Positions 2,615-34,304 of a stretch of 34,612 nucleotides of DNA are shown here, in pieces. Source of the DNA: Lysobacterales bacterium (lineage in GTDB: Bacteria; Pseudomonadota; Gammaproteobacteria; Xanthomonadales; SZUA-5); NCBI GenBank assembly GCA_041745855.1, contig JBGTIE010000568.1:1-34612 (forward strand), written 5' to 3'. The position numbers and the translations under genes were made by a program. The first letter of the stretch is position 1; the number at the start of each line of letters is the position of its first letter. The notes below the pieces were generated by a model. The model had not been told where the DNA came from and made no database searches. It saw only the letters and a list, made by a program, of their open reading frames with translations.

Positions 2615-3199
2615 CTAGTGTCCGCGTAGGAACGCCAACAGTGGCGCGTAGTCCTTTGCATCCGCGGCTCGAATCGCCGCAAGATATCGGGATCGTTGTT
2701 CGTTTGCAGGTAGGTGAGTGCCCCAGGAGAATGCTTCGAGCCGGTGTTTCGTCAGATAGGCATCGGTGAACACGCGCGCACAGCGTCCATTGCCGTTCGC
2801 GAACGGATGAATCCAGGTCAGCCGGTGGTGCAGGCGCGCGCCTCGCTCGTGGAGCGAATAGGTGTTGTATTCGTCCCAGGCGCGCACGTCGTCGAAGAGG
2901 TTCTTCAATTCCCCAGTGATGGCGCTCGGTGCCACGCCGATGTTCTTTTCGGACGCTCGGTACGTGCCTGCCCACCGCCACACGTTACCGAACATATGCG
3001 TGTGCAGTTCGCGCAGGAAATCCTGCGTCGGCACGTCTCGCCGACCAACCAGCCGTTGCATCCACGCCTGCCCTTCGCGGATGTTCTCTTCCTCGGCCAC
3101 GTTCAGGTCGCCGCGCGTGGCGATCCACGCCGGGATCAGGCCAGCGGCCTCATCCGGATCGATAGGAGTCTGGCCGTCTTCCGTCGCTTCGTTGTTCAC
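2615..3199 (-). CDS. Fic-domain protein ('mobile mystery protein B' type)
   Basis: HPFANGNGRCAR fits the Fic core HxFx(D/E)GNGRxxR, with N at the D/E position. The GTG start overlaps the upstream stop as GTGA. From memory, this size and HTH pairing match TIGR02613 (B) and TIGR02612 (A). Confidence 0.85.
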   Translation of the reverse strand: MNNEATEDGQTPIDPDEAAGLIPAWIATRGDLNVAEEENIREGQAWMQRLVGRRDVPTQDFLRELHTHMFGNVWRWAGTYRASEKNIGVAPSAITGELKNLFDDVRAWDEYNTYSLHERGARLHHRLTWIHPFANGNGRCARVFTDAYLTKHRLEAFSWGTHLPANEQRSRYLAAIRAADAKDYAPLLAFLRGH

Positions 3200-3669
3200 T
3201 TCCGCTTCTTCCAGTTCTTCCAGAGCCGGCGATCGCTAATCAGGGAAGCGCTGTGCTCCTTCCTCCAATCGGCGAGGCTCGGGTCCTTCTCGTCCTGATC
3301 TTCCAGGCGCATGTGTGTACGCGTGCGGGCCTCCAGCTCTCTGGCCGCTCGGTCACGCTGCCGTTCGACCATTGCCTGCAACGGCTCTCTTGGAACAAGC
3401 GCGTACACCAGATCGCAATCCATCGCATCCGCGAGCCGCTGCAGGCTGTCGAGCTGGATCGTCTGTTTTTGTTCGGAGCCTTCCAGGCGGGACAGGACGC
3501 CACGGGTGATACCCATGCTAGCCGCGAGATCCGCCAGCGTCATGCCAAGGGCGGAGCGGATGGCTTTCGCCCAGCCGCCGCGCGGCACGGCCAACTGGTC
3601 GCGCCGCGTACGCAGCGTCGCCAGGCGTTCGTCGAGTCGGGTGCGGGCTAGGTTAGTCTTGGCAGTCAT
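3196..3669 (-). CDS. XRE-type HTH protein ('mobile mystery protein A' type), probable partner/antidote of the Fic protein
   Basis: RSALGMTLADLAASMGITRGVLSRLEGSE is an XRE-like HTH. The ATG is at 3669 and the gene is translationally coupled to the Fic gene. Confidence 0.8.
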   Translation of the reverse strand: MTAKTNLARTRLDERLATLRTRRDQLAVPRGGWAKAIRSALGMTLADLAASMGITRGVLSRLEGSEQKQTIQLDSLQRLADAMDCDLVYALVPREPLQAMVERQRDRAARELEARTRTHMRLEDQDEKDPSLADWRKEHSASLISDRRLWKNWKKRK

Positions 3670-4299: not shown

Positions 4300-6021
4300 T
4301 CAGGCATCGAACGACGCAAGGCTGTCGACTCTTATGAGCTCAAACAGCATGCAGTTGTATCCTTGGCGCCAATCGCTTAGGCGTCGCTTAACTCGGAAGC
4401 CGGATGCCTTTATCAGCTTCTCCAATAGTAAGACATCACCGGATTCGGAAAATCCAAATACAACTAACCCACCCGGCCTAAGGAACCGGTCCACGGACCG
4501 AAAAAACGATTTAATATCGCGATATCCCTCGTCGGTACAACCTCGCTCCAACATATCGTGAGGACGAGCGCCATGATAGGGTGCGTTCCACGTCACGACA
4601 TCATAACAGCCTGACACAGCGTCGAATCCGTCCGATTGGAATGCCTCGCCGTTGAAGACACCCAATCTTTCGAAATTAAGTTGAGTGTTCCTCACTGCCT
4701 CAGGGTTCACGTCCACTGCGACCACGCGAGCAGCACCCGCGCGCGCCGCATGGACGGATAAGACACCCGTGCCGCAACCGATCTCTAAGAACTCAAGTCC
4801 ACCCACAGCCACTAGGTTCTCAGCGTAGAACGAGCTGGACCAGTCATAGGCCGGCGACCACACGCCTGGCAAAACCAGAATGTTCACCCCCAGCACTTCT
4901 GTCTCGTAGGGAGTCCGGTGTGACCGCATACGCTCAAGCGCATTAGGCGTTGTAGGGTGAAGCATGTACTCCTTCGTGCTCGGGCTTTGCTCCTCACCCT
5001 CCGAATTACTGCGAAAATACTCTTGGTTCAATTTCTCGGGTAGCCTGATGCGCGTAGGGTCTGGCAGTTGCCTGAGCCAATCCTTCACAATCCTACATTG
5101 CGTGGCAGGATTCAGCATGACACCTCTAGGTTCCGAACCAATTAACGAGCGCGCTTGCTCGAGCCCCGCGAATACAAGCATTCTTGTCAAGAGAATCTCT
5201 TCCGGCCGTTCCCACTCGCGAACTCTGTCGAAGTTTATGGGATACCCACCGTTTAAAACAGTGCAGTGAAGCTTGCCTACCTGACCGTTAGCATCACTGA
5301 AGCGTCCAGTAATAGGAAGTCTTGCTAACACTGATCGGAACTCGACGTTGGACGACGAGCAACTTGCAAAGATCCTGCGTCCAGAGACTGAATCCAGATC
5401 TTGTCCAGCCATGGTATCAGTCCCAGTCGCCCCCAAGATCAATTCTGACGAAAGCATCAGTTGATCAGGATCGACACGAACGTGGCGTAAATCGCTAACG
5501 AAAGCGTATGGGTCCGTCGCAGATACCGGTACACCTTTAAACACCAACGCCCTGGTAATCGCTGTTCCTAGAGCCCCAAGACCGATAACGCCGACAGAGC
5601 GCCCATCGAGCAGACCGAGACTCTCGAGTTTGCGAAGAATGCCGCCCGCGATGATCTGCGATTCAAATAGTAACTTGGCGCCAGATCGACAGACAAGGAC
5701 GGTCGGACAACTCCAGTTCAATTGCATACCGGCTGTAGTTTGCTCGACAGCAGCGGTTTGCGCGACTAGCGACGCAGGCAACGCACGTTGCAACTCGCCC
5801 CCTTCGTCCAGTACAAGCAAGCGTTCTTGATCGAGCGCATCGAAACACCCTGAAAGATCCGAGCGTAACGAAACTTGCGGAGGTAGTACGATGCGCGGTT
5901 CGATAGTCGAGTAGTCTTTGCCGAACAGGTCTATGGACGAATACTCGCCGCTCGCGGAAATTTTTTCCAAGAGCCACGATAGCGAAGGCAGGAGATGTTG
6001 CCTAGCAACTAGCCTAGCCAT
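4300..6021 (-). CDS. Fusion protein: AdoHcy-hydrolase-like NAD(P)-binding Rossmann domain plus C-terminal class I SAM methyltransferase of the HemK/PrmC-like type (NAPY motif)
   Basis: GRSVGVIGLGALGTAITRALVFKGVPVSATDP is a GxGxxG Rossmann motif. It is followed by ILGATGTDTM...RRIFASCSSSNVEF, laid out like the AdoHcyase NAD domain. The C-terminal half has VLPGVWSP, LEIGCGTGVLSVHAARAGA..VVAVDVN (SAM motif I) and VVTWNAPY (the NPPY-class motif IV, with A for P). The ATG at 6021 overlaps the upstream stop by 8 nt. Confidence 0.8.
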   Translation of the reverse strand: MARLVARQHLLPSLSWLLEKISASGEYSSIDLFGKDYSTIEPRIVLPPQVSLRSDLSGCFDALDQERLLVLDEGGELQRALPASLVAQTAAVEQTTAGMQLNWSCPTVLVCRSGAKLLFESQIIAGGILRKLESLGLLDGRSVGVIGLGALGTAITRALVFKGVPVSATDPYAFVSDLRHVRVDPDQLMLSSELILGATGTDTMAGQDLDSVSGRRIFASCSSSNVEFRSVLARLPITGRFSDANGQVGKLHCTVLNGGYPINFDRVREWERPEEILLTRMLVFAGLEQARSLIGSEPRGVMLNPATQCRIVKDWLRQLPDPTRIRLPEKLNQEYFRSNSEGEEQSPSTKEYMLHPTTPNALERMRSHRTPYETEVLGVNILVLPGVWSPAYDWSSSFYAENLVAVGGLEFLEIGCGTGVLSVHAARAGAARVVAVDVNPEAVRNTQLNFERLGVFNGEAFQSDGFDAVSGCYDVVTWNAPYHGARPHDMLERGCTDEGYRDIKSFFRSVDRFLRPGGLVVFGFSESGDVLLLEKLIKASGFRVKRRLSDWRQGYNCMLFELIRVDSLASFDA

Positions 6022-7201
6022 CTAGAGTTGATTCCTTGCTGGCAAACTCAAGCACCATGATCTTCGAATAAGTCCCTTGAATTTCCTTGCATACAACTCT
6101 GTATGGATAATTCGAGTATTTAGGTACAATGTTTTCCGCTATCATAATATTTGCAAGATCAAGATAGAACTCGTTTACCGGTTTCTCATTCGCATCTCTC
6201 TGTTTGTTCTGCCGGTGGAATATTCTATTGATGTTCCTCCTGATACTGTCGCGTCTTTTCTTCGCGGGGTTATCTAAAGCGGCTTGCGCATAGGCGCCAA
6301 TTAGAAAATTATGCGAACCGACAGGGAACAACAAACGGCTCTCCGTTGCCCACGAAGCCGATGCAAGATGAATATTCTCGGGCTTGATGCCGGTCATACT
6401 CAACGCTGAAGCTTCGTTAGGGCTGAGCGATTCACCCGACTGAGCCAAGAAGAGAGGCTCGTTCCGCAACGGACGGTTGCAAGCATCCCATACTGCGTCG
6501 AGAAACACGTCAAGGATGGCATCCTTTGACACGGCTTTTGCATACTGGCGACCCCCGCCATCTCTGCGCTTGTTGAGTAGATCATCGTGTATTCGGTAGG
6601 CTTTCTCTTTGAACAATAGCAGTTCGTTGAAGTTAAAGGAATTAAGAGAGTCTCTGTAGATCTTCGCCCTGACCCACGAATACCTTAGGAGACGATCCAC
6701 TAGATCTGTTTCGTTTTCTCCGAATTGCGCTCCATCGATGAACAGGACCCTGGCGCCCTCTTGAAGTATTAGCGGTAAAATAAGATGGGGTTTGCTTGTA
6801 CCACCATCAGTGATAACAGGCTCGTTGTCAGGATGGATTCTCTGTACGCTTCGTGCACCGGCCTGGATCCGCCATGATTCGCCCCGCCGGGTTGGACCAC
6901 TGCACCCTAGCTTCGCGTCAAGAAAAGAGAAGTCACCTATCACATCGCCCTGCGAAAGAAGTCGAATCGGACGGTAAGCGGTCATTTCGAGAAATTCGTA
7001 GGACTCGTATATTTCTATCTTTCCGCTAAGAACGAAGCCAATCGGGGTGGAATAGTTTAAGTTATTCAAATCTATATCCTCACACTTCGCGTATTCAGCT
7101 ATCTTGCAAAAGACGTCTGCTGCAATCAAGGGGGCCCAAGATGCGATTGCTTGTTTGTCGACGTAATCTATGTCGCTGAATTGAATTGGTAGCAGCTTCA
7201 C
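6014..7201 (-). CDS. Hypothetical protein, possible N-terminal cNMP-binding-like beta-barrel; very low GC
   Basis: It has a GTG start at 7201 with AGGAG about 8 nt upstream. FVLSGKIEIYES...RLLSQGDVIGDFSFLD resembles the cyclic-nucleotide-binding fold signature, but weakly. The remainder is unrecognised. Two 60-nt lines gave 35% and 38% G+C. Confidence 0.65.
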   Translation of the reverse strand: MKLLPIQFSDIDYVDKQAIASWAPLIAADVFCKIAEYAKCEDIDLNNLNYSTPIGFVLSGKIEIYESYEFLEMTAYRPIRLLSQGDVIGDFSFLDAKLGCSGPTRRGESWRIQAGARSVQRIHPDNEPVITDGGTSKPHLILPLILQEGARVLFIDGAQFGENETDLVDRLLRYSWVRAKIYRDSLNSFNFNELLLFKEKAYRIHDDLLNKRRDGGGRQYAKAVSKDAILDVFLDAVWDACNRPLRNEPLFLAQSGESLSPNEASALSMTGIKPENIHLASASWATESRLLFPVGSHNFLIGAYAQAALDNPAKKRRDSIRRNINRIFHRQNKQRDANEKPVNEFYLDLANIMIAENIVPKYSNYPYRVVCKEIQGTYSKIMVLEFASKESTLDG

Positions 7202-7211
7202 AATAGCGCTC

Positions 7212-8333
7212 CTACTGCAGATCCGTCAGATCAATGGTTGGCAGAGTATCAAATCGTCTCGAGTGACTAATGATCAGACTAGATCTGCCCTTCAACAAGG
7301 CGGACGTGCCGGTGAGCGCACTTTTGTCGTCCTGACCAAGAGTTGGCTCGTCCAGGATGAGCAATCCGGTGTTCCGAGCCAGCGATCCCGCAATCGCCAA
7401 GCGTTTTCTCATAACAAACGGCAAATCTAATGGGTGAGCTTCTCGTACCTGATTCAGACCGAAGGCCGAGAGCAGGAAGTCGACCTTTTCTCCCTGGCTG
7501 AGCTGACGCAAGACTGACTGTTCGAAAAGTTGGAGGTCAGGATTCTGAAAATGATAGCTTACAAAGCGCCCCGGCATTTTCCATGGATGCACCGATTGAC
7601 CATTTACCCGGATTTCTCCCGATGTCGGCTTGAGGAGTCCACACAGAATCTTGGACAGTGTAGTTTTGCCCGAACCGTTGGGCCCTCTCAGCAAGTAACG
7701 TTCAGATGCACGAATGCGGAGGTTCAGGTTGTGGAGTACGGGTTTGCCTCTGACGTAGCCGTAGCAGAGGTCGATCAATTCGAGTTCACACTGCTCGGGC
7801 AGAAGAGGGAAGGGTTCGTCAAGCTGCGTGGACGGGGCAGTTGCCGGCGCGAGCATCAAGTCCTCGACCGCCCCGTCGTGCCACTCGTTCAATCGGTTAT
7901 CCGTCAACATGACCTCGCCGTCCGTGTGACTCAGATAGGCGATGAGACGGGCCCTCACGTCAGCGCTCAGCTGTTCTAGTGTGCAATCAATAGCCAAGCG
8001 CTTGGGGCGGCCAGCCATGGCGGCAATCAAGGTAACGACGGTCTGTTCCCCGCCTGAAAGCGTGAATGGATTTTGCGTTAAGCAGTACCCGAAGCCAAGA
8101 TCTTCCAGGGCGTTACGAGCATTCGTTGCAGCGGAACGGTCAGCCGCCATGAGCTCAAACTCCGCTTCGACAGTTGGCGCAATTCCGGAAAGCGCACTTG
8201 ATGGATCGGGGCCCACGTAGGCCATATTGCAGTATGGCACGTCTTCGTCCGGATCATTTGGCAGCTTGACCCAGGCGCGAAGGCGACGCGTCCTTCCTGA
8301 GAAGTTCGGACCGTGAATTGCCTTCACGTTCAT
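7212..8333 (-). CDS. ECF/CbiO-type ABC ATPase with two compact, asymmetric nucleotide-binding domains
   Basis: NBD2 has GPNGSGKTTL (Walker A), FQNPDLQLF (Q-loop), LLILDEPTLGQD (Walker B/D-loop) and IISHS (H-loop), but a degenerate signature (LPFVMRKRL). NBD1 has a degenerate Walker A (GPNFSGRT) and Walker B (LAIDC), but an intact LSGGEQ signature. Confidence 0.88.
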   Translation of the reverse strand: MNVKAIHGPNFSGRTRRLRAWVKLPNDPDEDVPYCNMAYVGPDPSSALSGIAPTVEAEFELMAADRSAATNARNALEDLGFGYCLTQNPFTLSGGEQTVVTLIAAMAGRPKRLAIDCTLEQLSADVRARLIAYLSHTDGEVMLTDNRLNEWHDGAVEDLMLAPATAPSTQLDEPFPLLPEQCELELIDLCYGYVRGKPVLHNLNLRIRASERYLLRGPNGSGKTTLSKILCGLLKPTSGEIRVNGQSVHPWKMPGRFVSYHFQNPDLQLFEQSVLRQLSQGEKVDFLLSAFGLNQVREAHPLDLPFVMRKRLAIAGSLARNTGLLILDEPTLGQDDKSALTGTSALLKGRSSLIISHSRRFDTLPTIDLTDLQ

Positions 8334-9031
8334 GTGAGCTTTCCTGACGCAACAACCGCCAGGACAAGTGTTAGTGAGACCGCCCCCTGCACGCGGCTAT
8401 AGTAAGTGTCTTCGATCACCAGTTTGTTCCGCCTACTTAACACTCCTCGATGCGCCCATACCTCTGCGCGATTGACTGACGATTCTAGAAGTGACGCCAC
8501 CACCGGCATTAGCAGCGTAGGCAGCGCACGCAGTCCATTGAGCCCTGAAACTTGGTGCCCTTGCGCTCGGCGAGCATCGATGACTTGGGCCAGTCTGCGA
8601 CGCGTTTCGGGGATGAAGACCAGGGAGGAAATTATCAAGGTTCCCAAGGCGCCTCCCAGCCCGGTTCGATCTAAAAAGTCCTTGAGATTTGCGGGATGTT
8701 CGATCAGCGGGATGAGCAAGAATTGAAGGGCTCCGCCGCAGACCACGACTCTGAGCCAGAAATAGAGCGCATACGCGAATCCCGTACGATGTGGCGCAGG
8801 CACATCACTGGGGTCCATGATGACCCCCCAGACCAGCAGGAGGGCAATCAAGATGGGCATCGTCGCGAATGCTATGAACTTCAGCGCACTGACCCACACC
8901 CCTGAAAATGACACGGCCACAGCCACGAGGAGTGCTGAAGGGACTAGCCCGATGAGCGATTCAGTGAGTAATGCTGTCGCGATAGTCAGCATCACCGTGA
9001 ACAGCCTAACCATTGGATGCAGCCGCAGCAT
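8330..9031 (-). CDS. ECF transporter transmembrane (T, EcfT/CbiQ-like) component
   Basis: It is polytopic and hydrophobic. ETRRRLAQVIDARRAQG resembles the conserved EcfT Ala-Arg-Gly coupling helices. There is a 4-nt overlap with the ATPase gene. Confidence 0.72.
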   Translation of the reverse strand: MLRLHPMVRLFTVMLTIATALLTESLIGLVPSALLVAVAVSFSGVWVSALKFIAFATMPILIALLLVWGVIMDPSDVPAPHRTGFAYALYFWLRVVVCGGALQFLLIPLIEHPANLKDFLDRTGLGGALGTLIISSLVFIPETRRRLAQVIDARRAQGHQVSGLNGLRALPTLLMPVVASLLESSVNRAEVWAHRGVLSRRNKLVIEDTYYSRVQGAVSLTLVLAVVASGKLT

Positions 9032-9033
9032 GC

Positions 9034-9618
9034 TCAGAGGAAGCCATTCTTTTCCAGCACCGGATTTTTAAACCGCGCGAGTACTGTCTTGGGGAGCGAT
9101 CGCATCACGAAGAAGGCTGCCAGTGTTTGGAGTAGCTTGTCCACCGGCTCGCTGGCTGCACCGCTGAGGATCACCGCCTTGTAGATCTGCTGCCCAGTGG
9201 TAATGAGGCCAGCTGTAATCAGGTCGCGCCCGCTGCCCGCCACGCCTCCGAACACGTAGACGATCACAGGGGCCGATACCACGCCCGCCACGATTCCCAA
9301 CGCGATGCCCGTCGGGATTACACGGCCAAGCGTCTTGAAGGCAGCGAAGTGCGAAGCGAGGAGATACGCGAAGGCGGCGATCACAGCTTGGGTACCGATG
9401 AACCAAATGAAAACTGGATTGATGAGTACGGATGCCAGAAGGAAGCTGATTACTCCCACGATGATGCCGGGTAAGAGACCCAGCATCAGTACAGCGATGA
9501 TCGTGCCGATTGCGTCGAGGAAAATTGGAAGCTTGGTAATGTGAACGATCCCACCGATGGAGACGTTTAGGGCCACCAGCATGCCCATTAGGGCGAGGGC
9601 TCTTCCGCTGAACTTCAT
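9034..9618 (-). CDS. ECF transporter substrate-capture (S) component, substrate unknown
   Basis: The track ORF is 9034..9696. I moved the start to ATG 9618 (MKFSGRALALMGMLVALNVS...) with GGAG upstream. It is a six-TM-like small hydrophobic protein lying 2 nt upstream of the T gene. Confidence 0.68.
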   Translation of the reverse strand: MKFSGRALALMGMLVALNVSIGGIVHITKLPIFLDAIGTIIAVLMLGLLPGIIVGVISFLLASVLINPVFIWFIGTQAVIAAFAYLLASHFAAFKTLGRVIPTGIALGIVAGVVSAPVIVYVFGGVAGSGRDLITAGLITTGQQIYKAVILSGAASEPVDKLLQTLAAFFVMRSLPKTVLARFKNPVLEKNGFL

Positions 9619-9851
9619 TGAGGGACTCCGCTTCGGGTCGAGGGCGGGACCGCCCGGTCCATGGATTTTGAACTGCCTGGCACTGCGATGCGCCACCCGT
9701 TTCGCGGAAAAGTTTGCGAGATTACTTCAGCAAAGAAGTTGCGAGTACCAGCGCTCCAGTAATGGTGCCGAGCAAGGTTGTCGAATTTGGGCTATTTCTC
9801 GGGCGGCGTGTGTGAAAAATTAACGGTCCGCAGCGCACCGAGGACACGCTA

Positions 9852-10694
9852 ATGAACTTCGCAACGCCGATCCTTTCTAAGACGAGACGTCTTGCGGTCC
9901 CCGCGAATTGTCTCAATCTGTCGTCCCTCAACAGCTCCACGCAACTCCTCGCCGCGATGAAAGCCGTTCTCCGGGGCGAGGTACTTGCCATAGTTTCGTC
10001 GATTGAGCCCGAGGTCGCCCACAAGGCGGCAACAGTTGCTTCGACGGTCGCTGTAAACGACTACCGCGTCGCACCGGGCTTTGCGTTTCAGGCTGATGCT
10101 GCGCCGCTCTTCGAGGCTCGGACGGAGCAGGACGTCGCGGACTATTTGTCCAACGGCACCGCCTATGAGAGGCGTTTTGCTGCACGAATGCGCCCTCTGC
10201 CAACGCCGGCCGAACTCGTGGAAGAAGCGCTGGCCGCGGCATGGCCAGGTGGCTTGAGTCGCTTGCTTCTTCATGGGAAGCGCGCGCCTTTCGGCGTCGT
10301 GCGGCACCTCCAGCCTGGCGCCGGCGTGGCGCCGCACACTGACAACAGCGACCTCGATCGGCCGGACGTGCTCGCGTTCGCGCGCGCGCGAACGAATCTT
10401 TCTGCGCTCGTCTATCTGGAGCCTGGCCTCGGCGGCGAATTGTGCATCTGGAGGAGGCGGTTAACCACCAGGGAGGAGATTCGCGCACTTCGCGTTGAGG
10501 GCCATGCGTACGCAATTGACACGCGGGGGTTCCCCGCACCCATCGTGATCTCCCCTAAGCCAGGGATGGTGGTGATTTTTGACGCCAAGTATGTCCACGC
10601 CGTCTTGCTGAATCGCGGTGGAACGCCACGCGTGACTCAATCGGGCTTCGTTCTGGTGGGCGATCTCGACGACTCGCTCCAAACGTACTACTGA
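9852..10694 (+). CDS. 2-oxoglutarate/Fe(II)-dependent oxygenase superfamily protein
   Basis: It shows APHTDNS (HxD), SALVYLEPGLGGEL, VIFDAKYVHAV (distal His) and RVTQSGF (2OG-binding Arg). This order and spacing are typical of prolyl-hydroxylase-like 2OG oxygenases. The start codon is not verified. Confidence 0.72.
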   Translation: MNFATPILSKTRRLAVPANCLNLSSLNSSTQLLAAMKAVLRGEVLAIVSSIEPEVAHKAATVASTVAVNDYRVAPGFAFQADAAPLFEARTEQDVADYLSNGTAYERRFAARMRPLPTPAELVEEALAAAWPGGLSRLLLHGKRAPFGVVRHLQPGAGVAPHTDNSDLDRPDVLAFARARTNLSALVYLEPGLGGELCIWRRRLTTREEIRALRVEGHAYAIDTRGFPAPIVISPKPGMVVIFDAKYVHAVLLNRGGTPRVTQSGFVLVGDLDDSLQTYY

Positions 10695-12798: not shown

Positions 12799-13944
12799 TC
12801 AATGCGATCCGCCCAGCGCTTCCGCCGCATGCAGATCGTCGGCTTCCCGCCAGCGAGCGTTAGTTGCGCTGTGCTGTTCCAATAGACGCGATAGCTGCAC
12901 GACAATGTCGCCTGGCTGCGGGCGGCCAGCGGCGCCCAGACTCGCGATCAGTTCCGCCTGCCGACTCGTCGACACCGTCCCATAGCTGACAAACGTGGTC
13001 AGCACACCCTCATGCCCGAGGTTCTGGCTCCAGGCCTTGAACTCTTCGGGGGTCGTGCAGCGTTCCAGGCCGAGGGCGACCAAGGTCTTGCGAAGGCTGT
13101 GGGGATTGAAGTACGGCAGCCCTGCCTGCTCGAAGGCCTGGCGAAAGATCTGGCGTATCGGGGTTGCATTGCTCCAGTGCCCGTGCTCGAGTCCTGCTGC
13201 GCTGAACTGCTTGCCGGCGCCGACTTCAACGTGCGTGCGCGGGAAAAGGGCGTCATCGTCACCCCAGAGACGCTCCTTGCGTAGATGCGTCACCCAATCG
13301 ACCACGATGTCGCGTATTTCGTCGCCAACCGGGAAGAAGACGGTCGTGAAGGTCTTGCTGAACTTCGTCCTGACTTCCCGGGCATCCTGGAAAACGCGAT
13401 GTCTCGCGACATCGACATGCTTGAGCTTCATCGACGCCACGGCGCTGTCCCTGGCGCCGGTCAGCAGGATCAAGGCGATCAATGCGCGGTTGCGCAACTC
13501 GATGTCGTTGCCGGCCGGCATCGTGGCGATGACATGCCGGACCTGCTCCAGTGTCGGGCCCGAGGTCTCTCGACGGGCCGTGGCGACCCGGCAGTCCTTC
13601 TCGGAGAGGTTGAAGTACTCGGCGTCTGAGTACCTGACCCTTCTGGTGTAACCCGGTTCCCTGGCCAGCCACTCGATGAAGCGTTTCAGATGCGACACGA
13701 TCGCATACTGAGTCGCCTTGCTCAGGGCCTTCTCGGATCCGGCCGCGCCTGCGAGCCGCTTCTTGAAGGCGATGGCCTGCTCCCTGTGAAAATCCTTGAA
13801 GGCGCGATGGCCGGTGCTGGTCTCGAAGCGCGCCAGGGCCGCCGCGACAGCGTCGATGCTGCTCTCATCCTTCTGCTTTGCCTCTCGCAGAAACAGGAAG
13901 TACTTGCGCTTGATCCGCTCGTTCTGGACGTTGCGTTTTCTCAT
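12799..13944 (-). CDS. Tyrosine recombinase (phage-integrase family), internal to the island
   Basis: LLTGARDSAV (catalytic Arg box), HSLRKT (HxxR) and LGHEGVLTTFVSYG (His...Tyr box) are present. The N-terminal region is a SAM-like core-binding domain. There is an ATGA overlap with the upstream gene. Confidence 0.9.
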   Translation of the reverse strand: MRKRNVQNERIKRKYFLFLREAKQKDESSIDAVAAALARFETSTGHRAFKDFHREQAIAFKKRLAGAAGSEKALSKATQYAIVSHLKRFIEWLAREPGYTRRVRYSDAEYFNLSEKDCRVATARRETSGPTLEQVRHVIATMPAGNDIELRNRALIALILLTGARDSAVASMKLKHVDVARHRVFQDAREVRTKFSKTFTTVFFPVGDEIRDIVVDWVTHLRKERLWGDDDALFPRTHVEVGAGKQFSAAGLEHGHWSNATPIRQIFRQAFEQAGLPYFNPHSLRKTLVALGLERCTTPEEFKAWSQNLGHEGVLTTFVSYGTVSTSRQAELIASLGAAGRPQPGDIVVQLSRLLEQHSATNARWREADDLHAAEALGGSH

Positions 13945-14447
13945 GTCTGATTGCTCCTCTTGAAGTCACTGTTCACGGAAGCGCTGGCGTTCTCGCCTAT
14001 GTGTTGCTCTGCTTCCGCGAACTGGAGCTCCAGATCGGCAACCACCTGCAGCAACTTGGACTTCGACACGCGCCTGAACATCCAGCCATCGCAGGCCGGG
14101 CAGATGCCGACGAGGTTGCCGTTGGTCGGCGTCATTGGCTGAAACTCCACCATGTCACCTGCAGGACGCCGCGGTAACCGACAGCGCACGCAGTAGATCT
14201 CGGCCGGCCCACAGGGCTGTTTGTTCGCCCGGCGCCGGGACGTCAGATAGGCACTCAGGTCACAGCCCAGGATCAGGAACGGCCGCTGCTCGGTCAGCGC
14301 GGGGAGTCCGCGGCGGACCCAGTCGCGCACCGTGTTCTTGTGCACGCCGAGCAGATCGGCGGCTTCGCCGAAGGTGTAGTTGCGATGGATCTTGACCCGG
14401 CGCGGATTGGGCAGGCGCCGGTGTGTCCTCTGGGCTGAATCTGACAC
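13941..14447 (-). CDS. Excisionase/MerR-like HTH protein with C-terminal Cys4 zinc ribbon
   Basis: The track ORF is 13941..14519, which would overlap the AlpA gene by 70 nt. I prefer the GTG at 14447, 2 nt after the AlpA stop. It shows YTFGEAADLLGVHKNTVRDWVRRG (HTH) and CVRC...CPAC (zinc ribbon). Confidence 0.62.
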   Translation of the reverse strand: MSDSAQRTHRRLPNPRRVKIHRNYTFGEAADLLGVHKNTVRDWVRRGLPALTEQRPFLILGCDLSAYLTSRRRANKQPCGPAEIYCVRCRLPRRPAGDMVEFQPMTPTNGNLVGICPACDGWMFRRVSKSKLLQVVADLELQFAEAEQHIGENASASVNSDFKRSNQT

Positions 14448-14449
14448 GG

Positions 14450-14680
14450 TCAGCCACCGGTGCCGCGGCTGACCTGGATCTGCTGGGCCAGCCAAGCGTC
14501 GACTTCGGCCGCGACCCAACCGACGCTGTTGCCTCCGAGTCGGATCGGCTTGGGGAAGGTCGGGTCGTGGCGCCGCGACTTGGGATCGAGCTTGTCGTAG
14601 ATGGTGCTGCGCTTGAGACCCACGCGGGACTCAACCTGCCTGCGGCGAAGTATCGTGATGGAGCGGTTTGGGTCGGACAT
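14450..14680 (-). CDS. AlpA-family (prophage CP4-57-type) transcriptional regulator/excisionase
   Basis: ILRRRQVESRVGLKRSTIYDKL...FPKPIRLGGNSVGWVAAEVDAWL is the AlpA signature. The ATG is at 14680 with GGAG upstream. Confidence 0.85.
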   Translation of the reverse strand: MSDPNRSITILRRRQVESRVGLKRSTIYDKLDPKSRRHDPTFPKPIRLGGNSVGWVAAEVDAWLAQQIQVSRGTGG

Positions 14681-15848: not shown

Positions 15849-16676
15849 CTACGCCGGATGGCCGGAGTCTTGCCTGCGTCCACTATCGGCTGGCAGATGC
15901 CCGCCATGGTCCGAATTTGCGAACTTCACGCGGTGATATGCCAGATATCGCTGATGCTCATCCGCGATCCAACGCAATCGCGGACGTTCATCCAAACGCA
16001 GCGTAGCGAAGTCCTGAGACGGAATCCTTGGCGAGACCAGCATGCCACCCTCGATATCGAAGCTGATCAGGTAGCGGTCGAACAGGGCATCCAGGTTTGC
16101 CGTGAGCAGGAGGCCATTGAAGACATCGAGCCGCTCGGCGTCTGTCGCACACTCCGCCCAGGGCTTGGCATGGCTGGCGCGCAGAACTGCGCTGATGGCC
16201 ACGCCGGTGACGGCGCAGGCGCCGCCCCAGTAGTCCAGCAAGGCTGCCCGAAAGACATCTTGTCCGACGCGCTGGCGGACCAGGCGCTCAATCTCGGTAC
16301 CTAGAGCTGCGACTGGCAAGCGCCGCAGTTCAGTATTGACCGTCTGCTCGTAATCCTTCTCGGCCTGACGGGGCAAGGCCCGCGCCAGCGCCGCGGCACG
16401 GCGAAGCAATAGCGCAAGATGATCACGGTCGGTCGCTTCGAAGTCGTTGCCGCCCAAGTGCAACTCGGGCCAACTGCGGCCCAGTTCGTCTATCAGCGAA
16501 CAACGTGAGGAAGATTCGAAGCCGAGTCTCCATCCACGCGGCAACGTAGCCACGATGACTCGCGCGGGATGCAGCGCCGAGCCCATCCGGACCTCGGAAA
16601 GCGACCCATCCTTCACATGCTCGAAGCCATTGTCGTGACCGGCCTTTTCCACGAGCACTCGCTCCAAAGGGTTCAC
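15849..16676 (-). CDS. HNH nuclease (HNH_2/PF13391-like) with an uncharacterised N-terminal domain
   Basis: RQRVGQDVFRAALLDYWGGACAVTG...LRASHAKPW...DVFNGLLLTANLDALFDRYLISF matches my memory of the restriction-type HNH_2 domain. The GTG start overlaps the upstream stop as GTGA. Confidence 0.82.
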   Translation of the reverse strand: MNPLERVLVEKAGHDNGFEHVKDGSLSEVRMGSALHPARVIVATLPRGWRLGFESSSRCSLIDELGRSWPELHLGGNDFEATDRDHLALLLRRAAALARALPRQAEKDYEQTVNTELRRLPVAALGTEIERLVRQRVGQDVFRAALLDYWGGACAVTGVAISAVLRASHAKPWAECATDAERLDVFNGLLLTANLDALFDRYLISFDIEGGMLVSPRIPSQDFATLRLDERPRLRWIADEHQRYLAYHRVKFANSDHGGHLPADSGRRQDSGHPA

Positions 16677-20259: not shown

Positions 20260-23200
20260 TCATCCTCGCTTGCGCGAGACAGGCTGCGCCTGCGATGCCG
20301 AACCTGCCATTGTTGCCTCCAACGCGGTCTCGTGTTGACGACGCGCTTCAATCAACGCCTGTGCCAGCGACTCGGTGCGCGCATCGCCAATCACGTCGGT
20401 GAGTACATCGGGCGCGCGAACGGAGAGCGGTGCCGTGACGGGAACGCCGAGCAGGGAGCGCAGCCAGTCGCAGAGATGTGGCCAGCGTGCGTTGCTCAGC
20501 GCAACCCGCCAGCGGTCGAGTTCTTCGGCATACCGGGTGCTTGAAGGAAGCGGTGTGGCCAGAATCAAGCGCAATTGAGTGTCGTCGCAGGGCCCGGCTT
20601 GCAGGAGCACGTCGCAGACCAGGCCGGCAAGGAAATCTTCGGCTTCGGAGGCCGGAGTGCCGCCTTCGGCATACATGGGCAGGGGTGCCGTACGCCGCGC
20701 TGGAATGGTGAGGCGTTTCTGAACTTCCAGTGCATCCCAGGCTTCCAGCACCAGGCGCTGGGTGCGGTACTCGCCATGGGCCTTGAGTTCGTTCTTCTGC
20801 AGGACGCGAAAGGTCTCGGAGGGGTAGTCCGGGCCTTCGATGTCGGCGGGGTCGAGGATATAGCGCAGTTCGTCGCGGGTGAGCCCGTAGGCGCGGGCGT
20901 ACCAGGCGTCGAGTTCGGCGCGCAGGTGGGCGCGGCGATCGGGGTCAAAGCGGAAGGGCGGACCTTCGAAGCCGAGTTCGCGTGCCCAGGGTTCGAGGTC
21001 CCAAGCGGTGTATGTGAGTTCCAGCACTCGGGGGACGATAAAGGCCAGGTCGCCAGCGACAAAGTCTTCCGGGCCTGGAAGAGGCAACTGACGCAAGAAG
21101 TAAAAGCTAAAGTTCATGCCGCCAACCTTCTGGCGCGCTACATAGTCAAACGTCAGCGAATTGAGCCCGGCCAGAAGACAGGCTTGCGCAACGGCGTTGC
21201 GAGCCGGACAGAGCAGGAAGATGCTGTCTCCTGCCCCGCTCATAGGAAGGACATTCGCGATCATCGTCCTTTCGTCCGTGGATCGAGAGTTCCTTCGCCA
21301 ACCCAACAGCCACTGCCACTCCCAGTCCTTGTCCGTCAACCGTCGCCGCACGTCGGCCCCCTCCACCCAGTATCGCGGCGTGGGAGTGAAGCGCGGATTG
21401 GCCTTCTCGGCTTCAGTCACGTCGCGGCTGCCGACATCGCCCTTGCCAGCCTGACCTTTCTCGCTGGCTTCGTACGTAGCCCAGCGGTGGTCGAACTGGT
21501 GGATCATCTTGGCTTCGTACAGCGGCAGATCTCTTTCGCTCGCGGAGTCCGCGAACAGATGGCTGTCGCTTGACATGTTGTGCGTGCCTTGCATGAAGCG
21601 GATACCCCAAGGGTTCCGCTCCGGTCGGGTGCCGCGCCCCTCGCGGATGAGCACGGGCACGCGAAGGTAGATCTTGCGGGTCAGCTCGGCATCGCGCCTC
21701 GCACGAAACACCGGGCAAGTCAGCGTATTGGGGTTGATCCGAGTGAAATCTTCCGCACCCAGCGTGAATCGTCGGCGCGGATCTGTCAGTTGCCCGATCT
21801 GGGTGAGGAAGAACGCGAACTCCGCTTCAGCGGCTTGGCCCAAAGTCAGCAGGCAGAACTTGTAGCTACGGTGGACACCGGGAAAAATCCCCTCACGGTT
21901 CTCGAAGTCGTACAGACTGGCCAGCCGTCCACCCGACGCAATCGCTCCGAAGTAGGCCTTGGTCGAATCGTCGGTGGCGATGCCGGTCGGCACGATGAAG
22001 CCGGCACGACCGTTCGTGTCCACGATTTGGCTGATGGTCTCGGCGAACAGCGCATACGTGTTGACACGTCCAACCCCGGTCAGCCGATAGCGGCCACCGT
22101 CCTCACCGTCCACATGCGCGAACGTGCTGGCTGCGTCCAAGTTGCGCTTTGTGGTAAGAAACTCGCGATAAAGGCGCTGCTCGGCGAGGCAGACCGCTAT
22201 GCCTTGATCCCGATCAGGGTAGAGGTTGTGCGCCAACCTGCCTTGGGCCAGCCAGTCGATGCGATGGCTGCGCTCGGCCTTGTTCTTCGCCTGCGCCACT
22301 AGCGGATTGCGGGTGGCAAAGAACTCTTCCTCCTTCAGCTCAACATGTTCCCAGGGCGGATTTCCCAACACGCAATCGAAACCACCCTGTGCGAACACTT
22401 GCGGAAAGGTCAGCGGCCAGTGCAATACGCGTGCCTCGCGGCAAGCCGCGCGCGCGGCACCAAGCTGCCGGGCGTGCAGCGCGCCCGGCGTAGCCCCTAA
22501 CAGCTCGAAATAGAGTGACTGGCTAGTCGGGATCTGTTCGGCACTGGCTTGGGTCTTGGGCAGCAGAAATGCACCGAGTAGCAGGTCAGCTGCATGAGCG
22601 AGGTGGCTGGACTCTGCCTGCTGCTGAAATGCTTGCCATGCCGCGGCGCGAGCTTCGATGTCCGCCGTGGTGGCGTCGGGTAGCGCCTCCAGCGCCTTGA
22701 GCTGATCCATGCCGCTGGCGACGTCGAAGCGCATCAGCTGTTGGCCACGATTGAGGTCGCGCTCCAGCTGCTTGAGACCCAGCTTGTTCGCCTTCGCAAG
22801 TTCCCTGCACACGTCCTTGTCATCGCCGGACAGCGGCTTGAAGGCCGCCGCCGGGATGCCGGCCTCCAGCGCCTTGAGGTCAGTAATGCCGAGTAGGGCA
22901 TCGCCGCATTGCAGGTGATGATCGAGAAAGGATAGCGGTCTGCCCTCCTCAAAGCCCTCCAACCACAGGGCCGTGCGGCACAACTCTCTCGCCATCGGGT
23001 TGCGGTCGACGCCGTAGATGCAGCGGCCGATGACTTCACGCAAGGCATGACGATAGTCCGGCTCGAGGACAGCGCCCTCCACGCTGCGCAACGCGGCCAG
23101 GCGCTCGGCCAGTCGCCGGGCAGCTGCTAGCAGGAAGTGCCCGCTACCGCATGCCGGATCTATCACCTTGATACTAAGCAGGGCCTCGGTGGGGTTGTCG

Positions 23201-24693
23201 GGGCACTCGGCCAGACGTGCATTGATCACCGGGTCCAACGCGGTGCGAATCAACTCGGCAACCAGCGTGTCTGGGGTGTAGTAACTACCGCTGATCTTGC
23301 GCGCATGGCCTTGGGTGCTGCCCTCGCTGGTCAGGCCGACGAAGCCGAACCGGCGCGCGGATAGTTCCAATTCCGGCACCAGCTCAAGCAGGCTCTCGTA
23401 GACGCTGCCCAACTCCTCAGGGCCCATGTTTCGATAGTCGATCGGCACCCGCAAACCGCCGACACCGGCCCAGCGCAGTTGCTCCAGTGCGGCGAGCAGA
23501 TCAGCATTGGCGAGACTCGCTACGTCCAGGTCCGGACACTGTTCTGCGGCGAACAAGCCGCCCAGCGCCGGCAGCGCCAGTCGCGCTTCGCCATCCCGCA
23601 GGCCGCGGAAGACGATACGGGTGGCTTGCCAGAGATCCTCGAAGCTCGTTCTGGCGCGCCGCTTGAGCACGCGCTCGCGCAAGCGAGCCTGGGAATAGCC
23701 TTCGGCGTAGGCACGGCGAGCCGCAACGGCTGTCGGGCTGTCATCGTGCGGATGCAGCAGCCCGCGCTCCTCGACGGTGAAGACGAAGATCAGCCGATAA
23801 ATCAACCGCAGCAACTGCTCGAAGTAGCCGTCCTTGTCCAGCTGGCCATCCTGCAGGCGCTGACGCAATGTGCCGTTGCCAGAGTGCTGGAGAAAGCCGT
23901 TCCCAAGCGCAAGCAATGCGCTCGTGACACCGCTGCGCAAGCCCTCCCTGACTCGAGTGCCTTCCTCACGACCGGTCTCGCGCCAGTTCTCCCAGATGCA
24001 TGCCTGGGCTGGCGCGCCCGCTTGGCCGGCGCGGCTGGCATGCAACAAGCGCCAGACCAGCGGGAACTCGGGATAGCGCTGGGCGCCGAGCAGATCCTGC
24101 AGGTCGAACTCCAGATAGCTGGGGCGGGTTAGCGTCGCCGCATCGCGCAGCAGGCGCAGCTGACGACCGTTGCTGACGATGCCCCACAGATGGTCGTCGC
24201 TGGCATTGAGGAATTCCTGCGCCAGCTGAAATGCCGACTTGCGACGGCTGCCGCTACCGCTGACTGCGAAACGTTCATCGGGATCGTCCAGGCCCAGGTT
24301 GTGCGGCGCCACGACCACAGGCAGCACGCCCGCGATGAGTTGCACAGGGTATCGGCGCTCAGCGAGTGCCATGCCGTCGATGGCGTGAATGCCGTGGTAA
24401 CCGAAGGCATCTTCGAGCAGTTCCCGCACGAAGGCGTGCGTCGTTGAAGCTGGATCCAGGTCGGTGCGTTCAAGCATGGAGGCAAAGTGCTTCCATTGCG
24501 CCGAAGCGATCTGGAAAGCACGGCTGAAATCATCCTTCAGCTTGAGCCCCTTGGGCGTCCCGTAGTCAGCTTCGGCTTGCCGCGCGGCCTGTCCGTGCGC
24601 AGCCTTCTCCAGCTGATCTGGGAGGAACAGTCCGCCCACCAGACGCAAGCAAGGCAGGTCAAGCGCGGCGTGCTGTCCTCGAACGCGCTTCAT
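20260..24693 (-). CDS. Large gamma-class N6-adenine DNA methyltransferase (DISARM DrmMI / Eco57I-like)
   Basis: YYTPDTLV, VIDPACGSGHFLLAAARRL (SAM motif I) and VLGNPPWEH (NPPW motif IV) are present. It is 1477 aa with long N- and C-terminal extensions. There is an ATGA overlap with the SNF2 gene. Confidence 0.9.
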   Translation of the reverse strand: MKRVRGQHAALDLPCLRLVGGLFLPDQLEKAAHGQAARQAEADYGTPKGLKLKDDFSRAFQIASAQWKHFASMLERTDLDPASTTHAFVRELLEDAFGYHGIHAIDGMALAERRYPVQLIAGVLPVVVAPHNLGLDDPDERFAVSGSGSRRKSAFQLAQEFLNASDDHLWGIVSNGRQLRLLRDAATLTRPSYLEFDLQDLLGAQRYPEFPLVWRLLHASRAGQAGAPAQACIWENWRETGREEGTRVREGLRSGVTSALLALGNGFLQHSGNGTLRQRLQDGQLDKDGYFEQLLRLIYRLIFVFTVEERGLLHPHDDSPTAVAARRAYAEGYSQARLRERVLKRRARTSFEDLWQATRIVFRGLRDGEARLALPALGGLFAAEQCPDLDVASLANADLLAALEQLRWAGVGGLRVPIDYRNMGPEELGSVYESLLELVPELELSARRFGFVGLTSEGSTQGHARKISGSYYTPDTLVAELIRTALDPVINARLAECPDNPTEALLSIKVIDPACGSGHFLLAAARRLAERLAALRSVEGAVLEPDYRHALREVIGRCIYGVDRNPMARELCRTALWLEGFEEGRPLSFLDHHLQCGDALLGITDLKALEAGIPAAAFKPLSGDDKDVCRELAKANKLGLKQLERDLNRGQQLMRFDVASGMDQLKALEALPDATTADIEARAAAWQAFQQQAESSHLAHAADLLLGAFLLPKTQASAEQIPTSQSLYFELLGATPGALHARQLGAARAACREARVLHWPLTFPQVFAQGGFDCVLGNPPWEHVELKEEEFFATRNPLVAQAKNKAERSHRIDWLAQGRLAHNLYPDRDQGIAVCLAEQRLYREFLTTKRNLDAASTFAHVDGEDGGRYRLTGVGRVNTYALFAETISQIVDTNGRAGFIVPTGIATDDSTKAYFGAIASGGRLASLYDFENREGIFPGVHRSYKFCLLTLGQAAEAEFAFFLTQIGQLTDPRRRFTLGAEDFTRINPNTLTCPVFRARRDAELTRKIYLRVPVLIREGRGTRPERNPWGIRFMQGTHNMSSDSHLFADSASERDLPLYEAKMIHQFDHRWATYEASEKGQAGKGDVGSRDVTEAEKANPRFTPTPRYWVEGADVRRRLTDKDWEWQWLLGWRRNSRSTDERTMIANVLPMSGAGDSIFLLCPARNAVAQACLLAGLNSLTFDYVARQKVGGMNFSFYFLRQLPLPGPEDFVAGDLAFIVPRVLELTYTAWDLEPWARELGFEGPPFRFDPDRRAHLRAELDAWYARAYGLTRDELRYILDPADIEGPDYPSETFRVLQKNELKAHGEYRTQRLVLEAWDALEVQKRLTIPARRTAPLPMYAEGGTPASEAEDFLAGLVCDVLLQAGPCDDTQLRLILATPLPSSTRYAEELDRWRVALSNARWPHLCDWLRSLLGVPVTAPLSVRAPDVLTDVIGDARTESLAQALIEARRQHETALEATMAGSASQAQPVSRKRG

Positions 24694-34235: not shown

Positions 34236-34274
34236 GGCATTCCCCCGTGATGTGTGCCCATGGGTGAAAGGCTG

Positions 34275-34304
34275 GTGTGCCCAGATTGTCCGATCTGGGC
34301 ACAC
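34275..34304. promoter_or_regulatory. Perfect 12-bp inverted repeat with 6-bp spacer upstream of int; candidate operator or core/arm-type site
   Basis: The sequence is GTGTGCCCAGAT-tgtccg-ATCTGGGCACAC, 40-70 nt upstream of the proposed int start. Both arms contain the TGGGCAC heptamer that is also repeated nearby. Confidence 0.5.

Follow-up and report, generated by a model that had tools for sequence, protein, structure and literature searches.

On a 34,612-nucleotide stretch of contig JBGTIE010000568.1 from a Lysobacterales bacterium (the window), a single gene joins a module with the fold of S-adenosylhomocysteine (SAH) hydrolase (SAHH, AhcY) to an amine-type methyltransferase using S-adenosylmethionine (SAM). 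The gene of this protein, P0001, is the last of an operon of five genes that also encodes a partner, P0002, with a domain similar to cyclic-nucleotide-binding (CNB) domains, and three proteins, P0003, P0004, and P0005, that resemble the components of energy-coupling factor (ECF) transporters. SAHH is among the most conserved enzymes and its fold is usually equated with one reaction; in P0001 and its relatives, several residues of the SAHH active site are consistently replaced. The reading that we favour, and put forward tentatively, is that P0001 might be a bifunctional small-molecule enzyme performing the last step of a self-contained, mobile cassette for uptake and modification.

The gene of P0001 is an open reading frame (ORF) of 573 codons from an ATG to a stop codon. 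An initial annotation made from the sequence had reported this frame without naming its strand, and the frame proves to be a real gene (Table 1). All the motifs quoted at that time are found in the translation, i.e., GVIGLGALGTAITRAL (residues 144-159), ATDP (168-171), ILGATGTDTM (195-204), RRIFASCSSSNVEF (215-228), VLPGVWSP (383-390), and the GCGTG and NAPY motifs of the methyltransferase, and they are invariant or near-invariant across an alignment of 45 sequences of the P0001 family (A1). The AlphaFold2 model built on A1 is confident, with a mean pLDDT of 88.5 and a pTM of 0.86, and is disordered only at residues 349-356 and in the final seven residues. Among 89 non-self matches, 58 have lengths of 563-592 residues and align with a coverage of at least 97% and an identity of 46-70%. 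Because of these near-full-length homologs, the conserved motifs, and the confident model, P0001 is no chance ORF. The homologs are named only automatically, for example as "release factor glutamine methyltransferase" or "methyltransferase," in line with the initial remark that no described architecture of this kind came to mind; the fusion is rare, and a search for it elsewhere yields the 58 near-full-length clusters.

Residues 1-340 of the model comprise the whole body of SAHH, with both lobes and lacking about the first 45 residues. When aligned with VIA to SAHH chains, they give Z values of 28-30 with 314-332 residues aligned at a root mean square deviation of 2.9-3.5 Å, residues 1 to 323 or 340 of P0001 being matched to about residues 47 to 432 of the SAHH chain, i.e., up to the chain end. 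In Foldseek searches with the P0001 model, the listed ranks 1-47 are SAHH or SAHH-like proteins (E about 3e-13, 374-454 columns), rank 12 alone being a methyltransferase. When a profile built from the N-terminal module (A2) is compared with the PDB, the SAHH-like domains of AHCYL proteins come first (3mtg, E 5e-17; 3gvp, E 9e-17) and true SAHH follows (7r39, E 3.6e-12), and these alignments span both SAHH lobes. The initial annotation had recognised a likeness to the NAD domain of SAHH, and this likeness is borne out beyond that domain, over the whole body; the profile and fold searches lead to SAHH and not to an unrelated dehydrogenase family. A 2-hydroxyacid dehydrogenase identity of the N-terminal part was considered and rejected, as one sub-threshold match to 2-Hacid_dh_C (18.8 bits vs. 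a cut-off of 25.1) lies at the NAD loop, whereas SAHH fits both lobes. In the Pfam scan, PF05221 and PF00670 give no match to P0001 even at E values up to 0.1; the distant relatives P0088, which also carries PF00027, and P0089 pass PF00670 with 34.4 and 60.5 bits (cut-off 27). The host genome contains a single copy of the SAHH-like module.

For a comparison of active sites, the module was aligned to the AhcY of the host and to the PDB matches, residue equivalences were read from those alignments, and conservation was counted in 155 sequences of the wider family aligned to the A2 profile. The His of SAHH SLHMTTE is retained as H9 (154 of 155), the Thr of EETTTG as Thr95 (154), and the Lys of SVTKSKFDN as Lys116; in the last segment Glu120 (155) replaces Asp and Ser121 stands for Asn. 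The stretch K35-x-Y-S aligns to CNIFST (K35, Y37, and S38 in 154 sequences each), LDEGG to DDGGD (D72 in 153; position 73 is Asp in 117 and Glu in 33), and GATG to TTGN. Asp170, at the end of the strand that follows GLGALG, aligns to the Glu of TEID, the position being Asp in 149 sequences and Glu in 6, and in the following part E227 is found in 155 and N263 in 154 sequences. The catalytic Lys, the acid (as a conservative Glu), and the Thr of SAHH are thus present as K116, E120, and T95 in 154-155 sequences. The catalytic Glu and His are absent, their positions being occupied by Gln94 in 143 and by Ser223 in all 155 sequences; as noted initially, there are no GHFD-type residues, and SCSSS aligns to the NIGHF/NMGHS segment. 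The adenine-recognising residues are also absent. In P0001 the segment H9-L-L11-P-S13 takes the place of H-x-T-x-E, with Leu at position 11 in 140 and Ser or Thr at position 13 in 151 of the 155 sequences, at positions that we take to be those of the adenine-contacting Thr and Glu. In the numbering of human SAHH, the compared residues are presumably His55, Glu156, Lys186, and His301. Between Asn263 and the segment of the SAHH His-Pro loop there are about 30 extra residues, among them a helix (273-291) with invariant T279 and R280, in a part where the alignment is of low confidence. From the SAHH machinery, the family seems to retain the site for NAD and the part that oxidises a hydroxyl, and it would bind NAD and be catalytic; a different, strictly conserved residue set appears to stand where SAHH holds adenine and handles the 5' side. 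The changes at Q94, S223, L11, and S/T13 suggest a different ligand or reaction.

The same comparison bears on the possibility that the SAHH-like module is a non-catalytic sensor of NAD(H), adenosine, SAH, or a related nucleoside which gates the methyltransferase, whose target may then be a macromolecule, in a manner comparable to AHCYL/IRBIT. Such a role would suit the replacement of two SAHH catalytic residues, the sensor-type fold of the partner, and the order of the PDB profile matches, in which the AHCYL domains stand ahead of SAHH. We nevertheless regard it as distinctly unlikely. The SAHH-like constellation of H9, D72, T95, K116, and E120, together with the further polar residues K35, Y37, S38, S220, S222, S223, E227, N263, D265, T279, and R280, occurs in at least 140 of the 155 sequences (153-155 except D265) and has the look of an active site, though a binding site could be conserved as well. 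Also, most members of the family have no methyltransferase to regulate.

The C-terminal third belongs to the MTS family (PF05175, 51.2 bits vs. a cut-off of 23, residues 380-486), and its initial description as a small class-I amino-type methyltransferase is in line with this result and with the HemK, MTQ2, and RsmC models that lead its NCBIfam matches. The best models are NF011529 (PRK14968; 83.4 bits vs. 162) and TIGR00537 (HemK2/MTQ2; 62.5 vs. 87), and lower scores are obtained for TIGR03534 (PrmC; 47.3 vs. 199.1) and RsmC (39.4 vs. 295). The module is unlikely to be a PrmC: the alignment to TIGR03534 covers only profile positions 90-241 and the N-terminal helical domain is unmatched. With the module alone, the nearest solved relatives by sequence are GenN (4e-12), RsmC (4e-9), and HemK (5e-6); by fold, Foldseek finds the carbamoyl N-methyltransferase 9l4q_B (TMt 0.74) and GenN (E 8.6e-12). 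The solved relatives listed for the module are all N-methylating. Motif IV reads N-A-P-Y where PrmC has NPPY, and is presumably a variant of the (D/N/S)PP(Y/F) class common to several kinds of amino-methyltransferase. "Release factor glutamine methyltransferase" is very probably a wrong name for these genes, because a far better PrmC candidate is encoded elsewhere in the host genome (180.4 bits vs. 48.6 for P0001). Stand-alone homologs of the module, 55-57% identical from about residue 316-332 onward and equally unnamed, occur in two metagenome-assembled genomes (MAGs). These genes (L007:1128-1787 and L008:8004-8702) match P0001 from about residue 316 or 332 to 566 and have chromosomal contexts, the former near rpoA and rplQ and the latter flanked by NAD-kinase-like and PfkB-like genes; the source of the methyltransferase module may have been related to them.

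With both modules described, a proposal that builds on the initial annotation can be weighed, in which a methyltransferase acting on protein Gln or a nucleic-acid base is tied to a domain clearing its product, the SAHH-like module removing SAH in cis and relieving product inhibition. The SAHH fold does extend across the whole body, with the Lys, the acid, the Thr, and the N-terminal His kept, and HemK, MTQ2, and RsmC are the best NCBIfam models. Those models are all far under their cut-offs, however, Gln94 and Ser223 replace Glu and His, Leu11 and Ser13 stand at adenine-contact positions, and the insertion after Asn263 and the silence of both SAHH Pfam models point the same way, as does the far better PrmC candidate. 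The host also encodes a separate canonical AhcY on another contig (480 bits to PF05221). Clearance of SAH in cis is unlikely because the key SAHH residues are replaced family-wide, the family is mostly free of methyltransferases, the host has its own AhcY, and the transporter and P0002 are left without a role; for the proposal as a whole we see only a small chance.

The SAHH-like module of P0001 belongs to a much larger, uncharacterised family. A profile search of 1.84 billion representatives returned 3749 proteins at E values of at most 1e-3 and 1156 at most 1e-30, and the SAHH-like family comprises at least 1156 clusters at 50% identity. The nearest Atlas clusters are named automatically as "NAD(P)-dependent oxidoreductase" or "hypothetical," with PF00670 in up to 94% of their members. 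The best 150 family members are mostly stand-alone proteins of 400-470 residues, and methyltransferase fusions are very few among them (P0036, 574 residues; P0075, 891 residues); P0137 (934 residues) has a length comparable to the fusions, its C-terminal part being unchecked. The stand-alone SAHH-like genes follow a gene for a protein of about 470 residues (F5) without a Pfam match, which over its N-terminal part shows homology to P0002 (hhalign probability 97.6, E 3.9e-12). The two folds are also linked by fusions: in P0080 and P0075 an N-terminal stretch matches about residues 29-126 of P0002 (E 1e-5 and 3e-4), and P0088 combines PF00027 with PF00670. In a variant cassette (L013), genes for the S component, the T component, and the ATPase are accompanied by F5 and an SAHH-like protein without methyltransferase. 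Because of the homology of F5, the fusions that link both folds, and the mostly methyltransferase-free family, the ancestral unit appears to be the CNB-like partner together with the SAHH-fold protein, to which methyltransferase and importer would have been added in the P0001 branch.

The contexts of this two-gene pair are mixed. In three of six scanned loci a transposase, an integrase, or a Type ISP restriction enzyme is encoded nearby, and in the other three the pair lies among housekeeping-type genes. Members of the family are also found on Legionella conjugative plasmids between toxin-antitoxin genes and on the Simkania plasmid pSn (L027, 5647-8600), where the SAHH-like gene is followed by genes for a short-chain dehydrogenase/reductase-type oxidoreductase and an EamA-family transporter; pSn ties the family to a transporter a second time, independently of the cassette. 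A broader reading, possible but doubtful in our judgement, is that the SAHH-fold module represents a large unrecognised enzyme family with its own catalytic set, usually paired with or fused to a CNB-like partner, and that the mobile two-gene module senses and transforms a nucleoside-like signal or metabolite, the P0001 branch having captured an ECF importer and an N-methyltransferase. The catalytic set would include Gln for Glu, Ser-Ser-Ser for Gly-His-Phe, and the inserted helix near the base pocket, which we propose with the same reserve as part of that reading. If the importer was indeed captured in this way, the result would be a transferable pathway to import, oxidise, and N-methylate, or a new conflict system, for a compound not known to be so handled.

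The four genes upstream of P0001 lie on the same strand, with overlaps or gaps of at most 10 bases, the stop of P0002 overlapping the start of P0001 by 8 bases. The initial annotation described the fusion from the gene alone and missed the operon, which we consider the main functional clue. P0005 is the most conserved protein of the cassette. It matches the CD3073 family (NF045596) with 92.7 bits (cut-off 180) and PF12822 with 28.3 bits (cut-off 30.7), PF12822 being listed in precomputed annotations for most of its homologs, and no sequence match was found in the PDB; its likely start is the ATG at 9618. Of its 217 homologs, 120 are listed, of which 98 have exactly 194 residues, with identities of 59-88% and generic names. 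P0004 is probably the ECF T component, as suggested by TIGR02454, by the CbiQ model PF02361 (matched by four of eight family members, best E 4.3e-4), and by two Ala-x-x-Gly/Arg-Gly stretches, ARRAQG and AHRG, which were read by eye and which we take to be the EcfT signature; neither its sequence nor a T-component profile gave a match in the PDB. P0003 scores 109 bits to PF00005 in two stretches, and the ECF ATPase models TIGR04521 and TIGR04520 are its top matches, below cut-off (104.9 bits vs. 330). Its first half is short, with a Walker A of GPNFSGRT (with Arg), no catalytic Glu (LAIDCT), and a good LSGGE, whereas in its second half Walker A, Walker B, and the H-loop fit the consensus and the signature is degenerate, an asymmetry that would leave one active ATP site.

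P0002 has no Pfam match. Its AlphaFold2 model (pLDDT 80.7) gives Foldseek matches to CRP at E values of about 1e-4, and a wide VIA comparison finds the CNB fold over about residues 6-190, with Z values of 10-11 and 107-126 residues aligned at a root mean square deviation of about 3 Å; the score in the Atlas, 0.88, is below the Atlas's own line of 0.9. To about residues 190-395, a half never searched separately, no fold was assigned. By eye and without a tool alignment, a stretch at about residues 85-114 (GDxxGDFSxLD...GESWRIxAG) resembles the phosphate-binding cassette of CRP, and in it an invariant Glu108 is seen where CRP-type domains carry the phosphate-binding Arg. A Glu at this site would argue against a cyclic nucleotide as ligand.

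The gene order S component, T component, ATPase, P0002, and fusion recurs in the window and in six other loci (L001-L006), the fusion being last, and full-length or near-full-length relatives of P0001 end the cassette in eight of eight loci, which include L009. These loci are scattered over MAGs of Nitrospirota, Sphingomonadales, Caulobacterales, Desulfobulbia, and Thiohalocapsa. P0002 is syntenic in seven of the eight. In the Thiohalocapsa MAG (L009:6816-9716) a separate P0002-like gene is missing, and the fusion, with 966 residues, has an N-terminal extension of about 390 residues in place of the fourth gene; this extension aligns only briefly and weakly with the CNB core of P0002 (probability 30%, E 5.6e-4) or of F5 (probability 10%), and we do not accept it as a proven three-way fusion. 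Compared with the cassette of the window, the S component is 65-77% identical, the fusion 52-56%, the ATPase 47-55%, and the T component 38-51%. With 24-46% in the best local and 21-31% over the whole alignment, P0002 is the fastest-evolving protein. The flanks of the cassette are unconserved among loci, its guanine-plus-cytosine content is 49-57% as compared with mostly 60-66% for the rest of the window, and the P0001 gene was not found in 40 relatives of the host (2 of the same genus, 22 of the same family, and 16 of the same order). No convincing terminal repeats were found around the cassette, and a promoter and terminator scan gave signals at or below chance level.

As an alternative, the conserved pair of CNB-like and SAHH-fold proteins might be a mobile anti-phage or inter-element module, to which methyltransferase and ECF module were added here, with the CNB-like protein as a fast-evolving sensor and the SAHH-fold protein as an effector directed at nucleotides or NAD. 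The island genes of the window encode HTH-Fic proteins, a 2-oxoglutarate (2OG) oxygenase, an M23 peptidase, an integrase with an excisionase-like gene, HNH_2, and DUF3800, and the neighbours of other cassettes include a NikA-like gene with RT-Cas1 (L001), HNH_2 with a serine recombinase (L002), and a DNA methylase with a patatin (L004); among the ORFs scanned at L003, L005, L006, and L009, no defence or mobile genes were found. Together with the absence of the cassette from the 40 relatives, its low guanine-plus-cytosine content and unconserved flanks, the mobile or restriction genes in half of the scanned two-gene loci, the Legionella plasmids, and the rapid evolution of P0002, these neighbours speak for a conflict role. 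CNB domains act as sensors in Pycsar effectors, and the Pycsar effector chain 8jsk_B is among the fold matches of P0002 (Z 9.8). On the other hand, none of the PADLOC models covers P0002, F5, or the SAHH-like proteins, and only generic parts of the cassette match, i.e., mad2 (81.5 bits on residues 398-527 of P0001) and mad3 (methyltransferase and ATPase parts). PHROGs contains no family for P0002, F5, or stand-alone SAHH-like proteins and gives a weak match to the methyltransferase region of P0001, and of 14 pattern matches in viral contigs none was confirmed as a relative. What a strongly conserved importer of the vitamin type would do in defence is not obvious, and half of the scanned two-gene loci lie among housekeeping-type genes. 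On balance, we consider a conflict system unlikely.

In the uptake-and-modification cassette that we tentatively favour, P0005 as S component, P0004 as T component, and P0003 as fused asymmetric ATPase would form an ECF-type transporter importing a scarce compound, probably nucleoside-like or amino-sugar-like. P0002 would bind the imported compound or a related cue and cooperate with the SAHH-fold module. This module would hold NAD, and the set of Lys116, Thr95, Glu120, and His9 might oxidise a secondary hydroxyl of the ligand; the chemistry may be oxidation-assisted as in SAHH, but without hydrolysis of SAH. The NAPY methyltransferase would then use SAM to methylate an amino nitrogen of the same molecule. 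The direction of transport, the order of these steps, and the identity of the ligand are predicted in this scheme, and several points weigh against it. The S component matches only a family of unassigned specificity, and that below cut-off, the matches that identify P0004 as T component are weak, and the cassette contains no aminotransferase, kinase, or glycosidase that would outline a pathway. Methyltransferases with NxPY also modify protein Gln and bases of rRNA and DNA, and the motif singles out no small molecule. Residue equivalences in the SAHH-fold module beyond about position 231 are of low confidence. Rfam detects nothing in the whole window at gathering scores, and the region 9400-10100 gives matches at chance level only, so that no riboswitch is found upstream. 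Most SAHH-like family members have neither a transporter nor a methyltransferase nearby, and the core function therefore needs no uptake. Finally, defence or mobile genes lie beside the cassette in four of eight loci, which also fits a conflict system.

Table 1. Positions of the P0001 gene, its modules and motifs, and the other genes of the operon in the window.
Feature	Positions	Strand	Basis
P0001, whole gene, 573 residues: SAHH-fold module, linker, and N-methyltransferase module	4300..6021	minus	ORF, translation, homologs, AlphaFold2
SAHH-fold module, residues 1-340: substrate lobe, NAD lobe, and C-terminal helices, without about the first 45 SAHH residues	5002..6021	minus	VIA, Foldseek, profile vs. 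PDB
Gln94 in VEQTTxG, at the second Glu of SAHH EETTTG	5740..5742	minus	alignments; Q in 143/155
Lys116 in SxAKLxFES, at the catalytic Lys of SAHH SVTKSKFDN	5674..5676	minus	alignments; K116 155/155
GLGALG dinucleotide-binding loop, residues 147-152 (SAHH GYGDVG)	5566..5583	minus	three G each 155/155
SCSSS, residues 220-224, replacing SAHH NIGHF, with Ser223 at the catalytic His position	5350..5364	minus	S223 155/155
Inter-module linker, residues 341-356	4954..5001	minus	pLDDT <50 for residues 349-356
Class-I SAM methyltransferase module, MTS/HemK-related, residues 357-566	4324..4953	minus	PF05175, NCBIfam, PDB sequence matches, fold
GCGTG SAM-binding loop (motif I), residues 415-419	4765..4779	minus	G415, G417, G419 invariant in A1
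NAPY (motif IV), residues 479-482	4576..4587	minus	N479, P481 invariant; A480, Y482 >=90% in A1
P0002, 395 residues: CNB-like (CRP-like) N-terminal domain and C-terminal half of unassigned fold	6014..7201	minus	AlphaFold2, Foldseek, VIA-wide
P0003, 373 residues: fused double ABC ATPase, probably of ECF/CbiO type, with one consensus and one degenerate site	7212..8333	minus	Pfam, NCBIfam, motif reading
P0004, 233 residues: membrane protein, probable ECF T component	8330..9031	minus	TIGR02454 E 0.011; PF02361
P0005, 194 residues from the ATG at 9618 (ORF open to a GTG at 9696): putative ECF S component	9034..9618	minus	NF045596, PF12822

Directly downstream of the cassette, an HTH_3 gene (3196-3669, minus strand) overlaps the start of a Fic/DOC gene (2615-3199, minus strand), a layout that looks like a toxin-antitoxin pair. 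A gene similar to 2OG-Fe(II) oxygenases (9852-10694, plus strand) is divergent from the cassette and is unconserved beside it at other loci. One or two integrated elements may have their borders at a tyrosine integrase with an HTH_17 excisionase-like gene (12799-14519, minus strand) and at a second ORF (32931-34304, minus strand), which falls into cluster F6 together with Arm-binding integrases from L014 and L018. In the Parasphingorhabdus MAG, the region directly upstream of the cassette contains homologs of the HNH_2 endonuclease of the window (15849-16676, minus strand) and of part of an ORF of 1477 residues (20260-24693, minus strand), at L002:3248-4027 (cluster F8) and L002:111-1622 (cluster F7), respectively. 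The two islands therefore share cargo beyond the cassette itself.

Both folds and the ECF module were already known; the fusion, the altered active site, the CNB-like partner, and the cassette carry automatic names only. The listings and openings of abstracts returned by literature searches, with subscription journals outside their coverage, held no description of the fusion, the altered SAHH-type site, the CNB-like partner, or the five-gene cassette. There is a fair chance that the underlying SAHH-like family does something new. A large bacterial family, uncharacterised so far and carried by islands and plasmids, is marked by an SAHH fold whose active site is consistently altered; in the P0001 branch this fold is fused to an amine-type methyltransferase, and the operon would also supply an importer of its own and a partner that binds ligand. 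With the ligand identified, more than 1000 protein clusters would gain a function and an orphan family of ECF S components a substrate, and it would become clear whether the oxidation-assisted chemistry of SAHH was reused for another substrate.

In comparison with known systems, the N-terminal module shares with AhcY/SAHH (PF05221, PF00670) the two-lobed fold over 314-332 residues at Z values of 28-30, and a collinear series consisting of a His, DxGG, E-x-T-T-x-G, S-x-x-K-x-x-F-acid, GxGxxG, an acid after the second strand, xTG, and E-F/I after the His segment. It differs in that Gln replaces the second Glu of EETTTG, Ser-Ser-Ser replaces Gly-His-Phe, Glu replaces the Asp after Lys, and Leu and Ser stand at the adenine contacts; about 45 N-terminal residues are missing, and a different C-terminal tail leads into the methyltransferase; P0001 is reported by neither Pfam model, and the true AhcY of the host is separate. 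AHCYL1 and AHCYL2 (IRBIT; 3mtg and 3gvp) are the best profile matches among solved structures, at the E values given above. These SAHH-fold proteins, which we take not to be SAH hydrolases, are eukaryotic regulators with a disordered N-terminal extension and a different pattern of substituted residues, and unlike P0001 they have neither a methyltransferase nor a transporter operon.

With HemK/PrmC and HemK2/MTQ2, the C-terminal module has in common the small class-I fold, the GxGxG motif I, and an N-x-P-Y motif IV, which is NAPY and not NPPY in P0001; the helical N-terminal domain of PrmC is unmatched and scores are far under the cut-offs. GenN, the gentamicin 3''-N-methyltransferase (5u4t, 5tyq, and 5u0t), is the closest solved relative by sequence (E 4e-12 over 130 residues) and also a fold match, and it methylates a primary amine of a small molecule. 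It differs from P0001 by an identity of about 25%, by N-S-P-T at motif IV, and by its own N-terminal domain, and no aminoglycoside cluster is found at P0001. Finally, like operon-encoded ECF transporters (CbiMNQO and BioMNY, and the CD3073 S component), the cassette brings together a small putative S component, a probable CbiQ-like T component, and ATPase domains that resemble CbiO. Here, in contrast, all components score below curated cut-offs, the two ATPase domains share one chain and are asymmetric, the hosts belong mostly to Gram-negative lineages, and the operon also encodes a CNB-like protein and an SAHH-fold methyltransferase.

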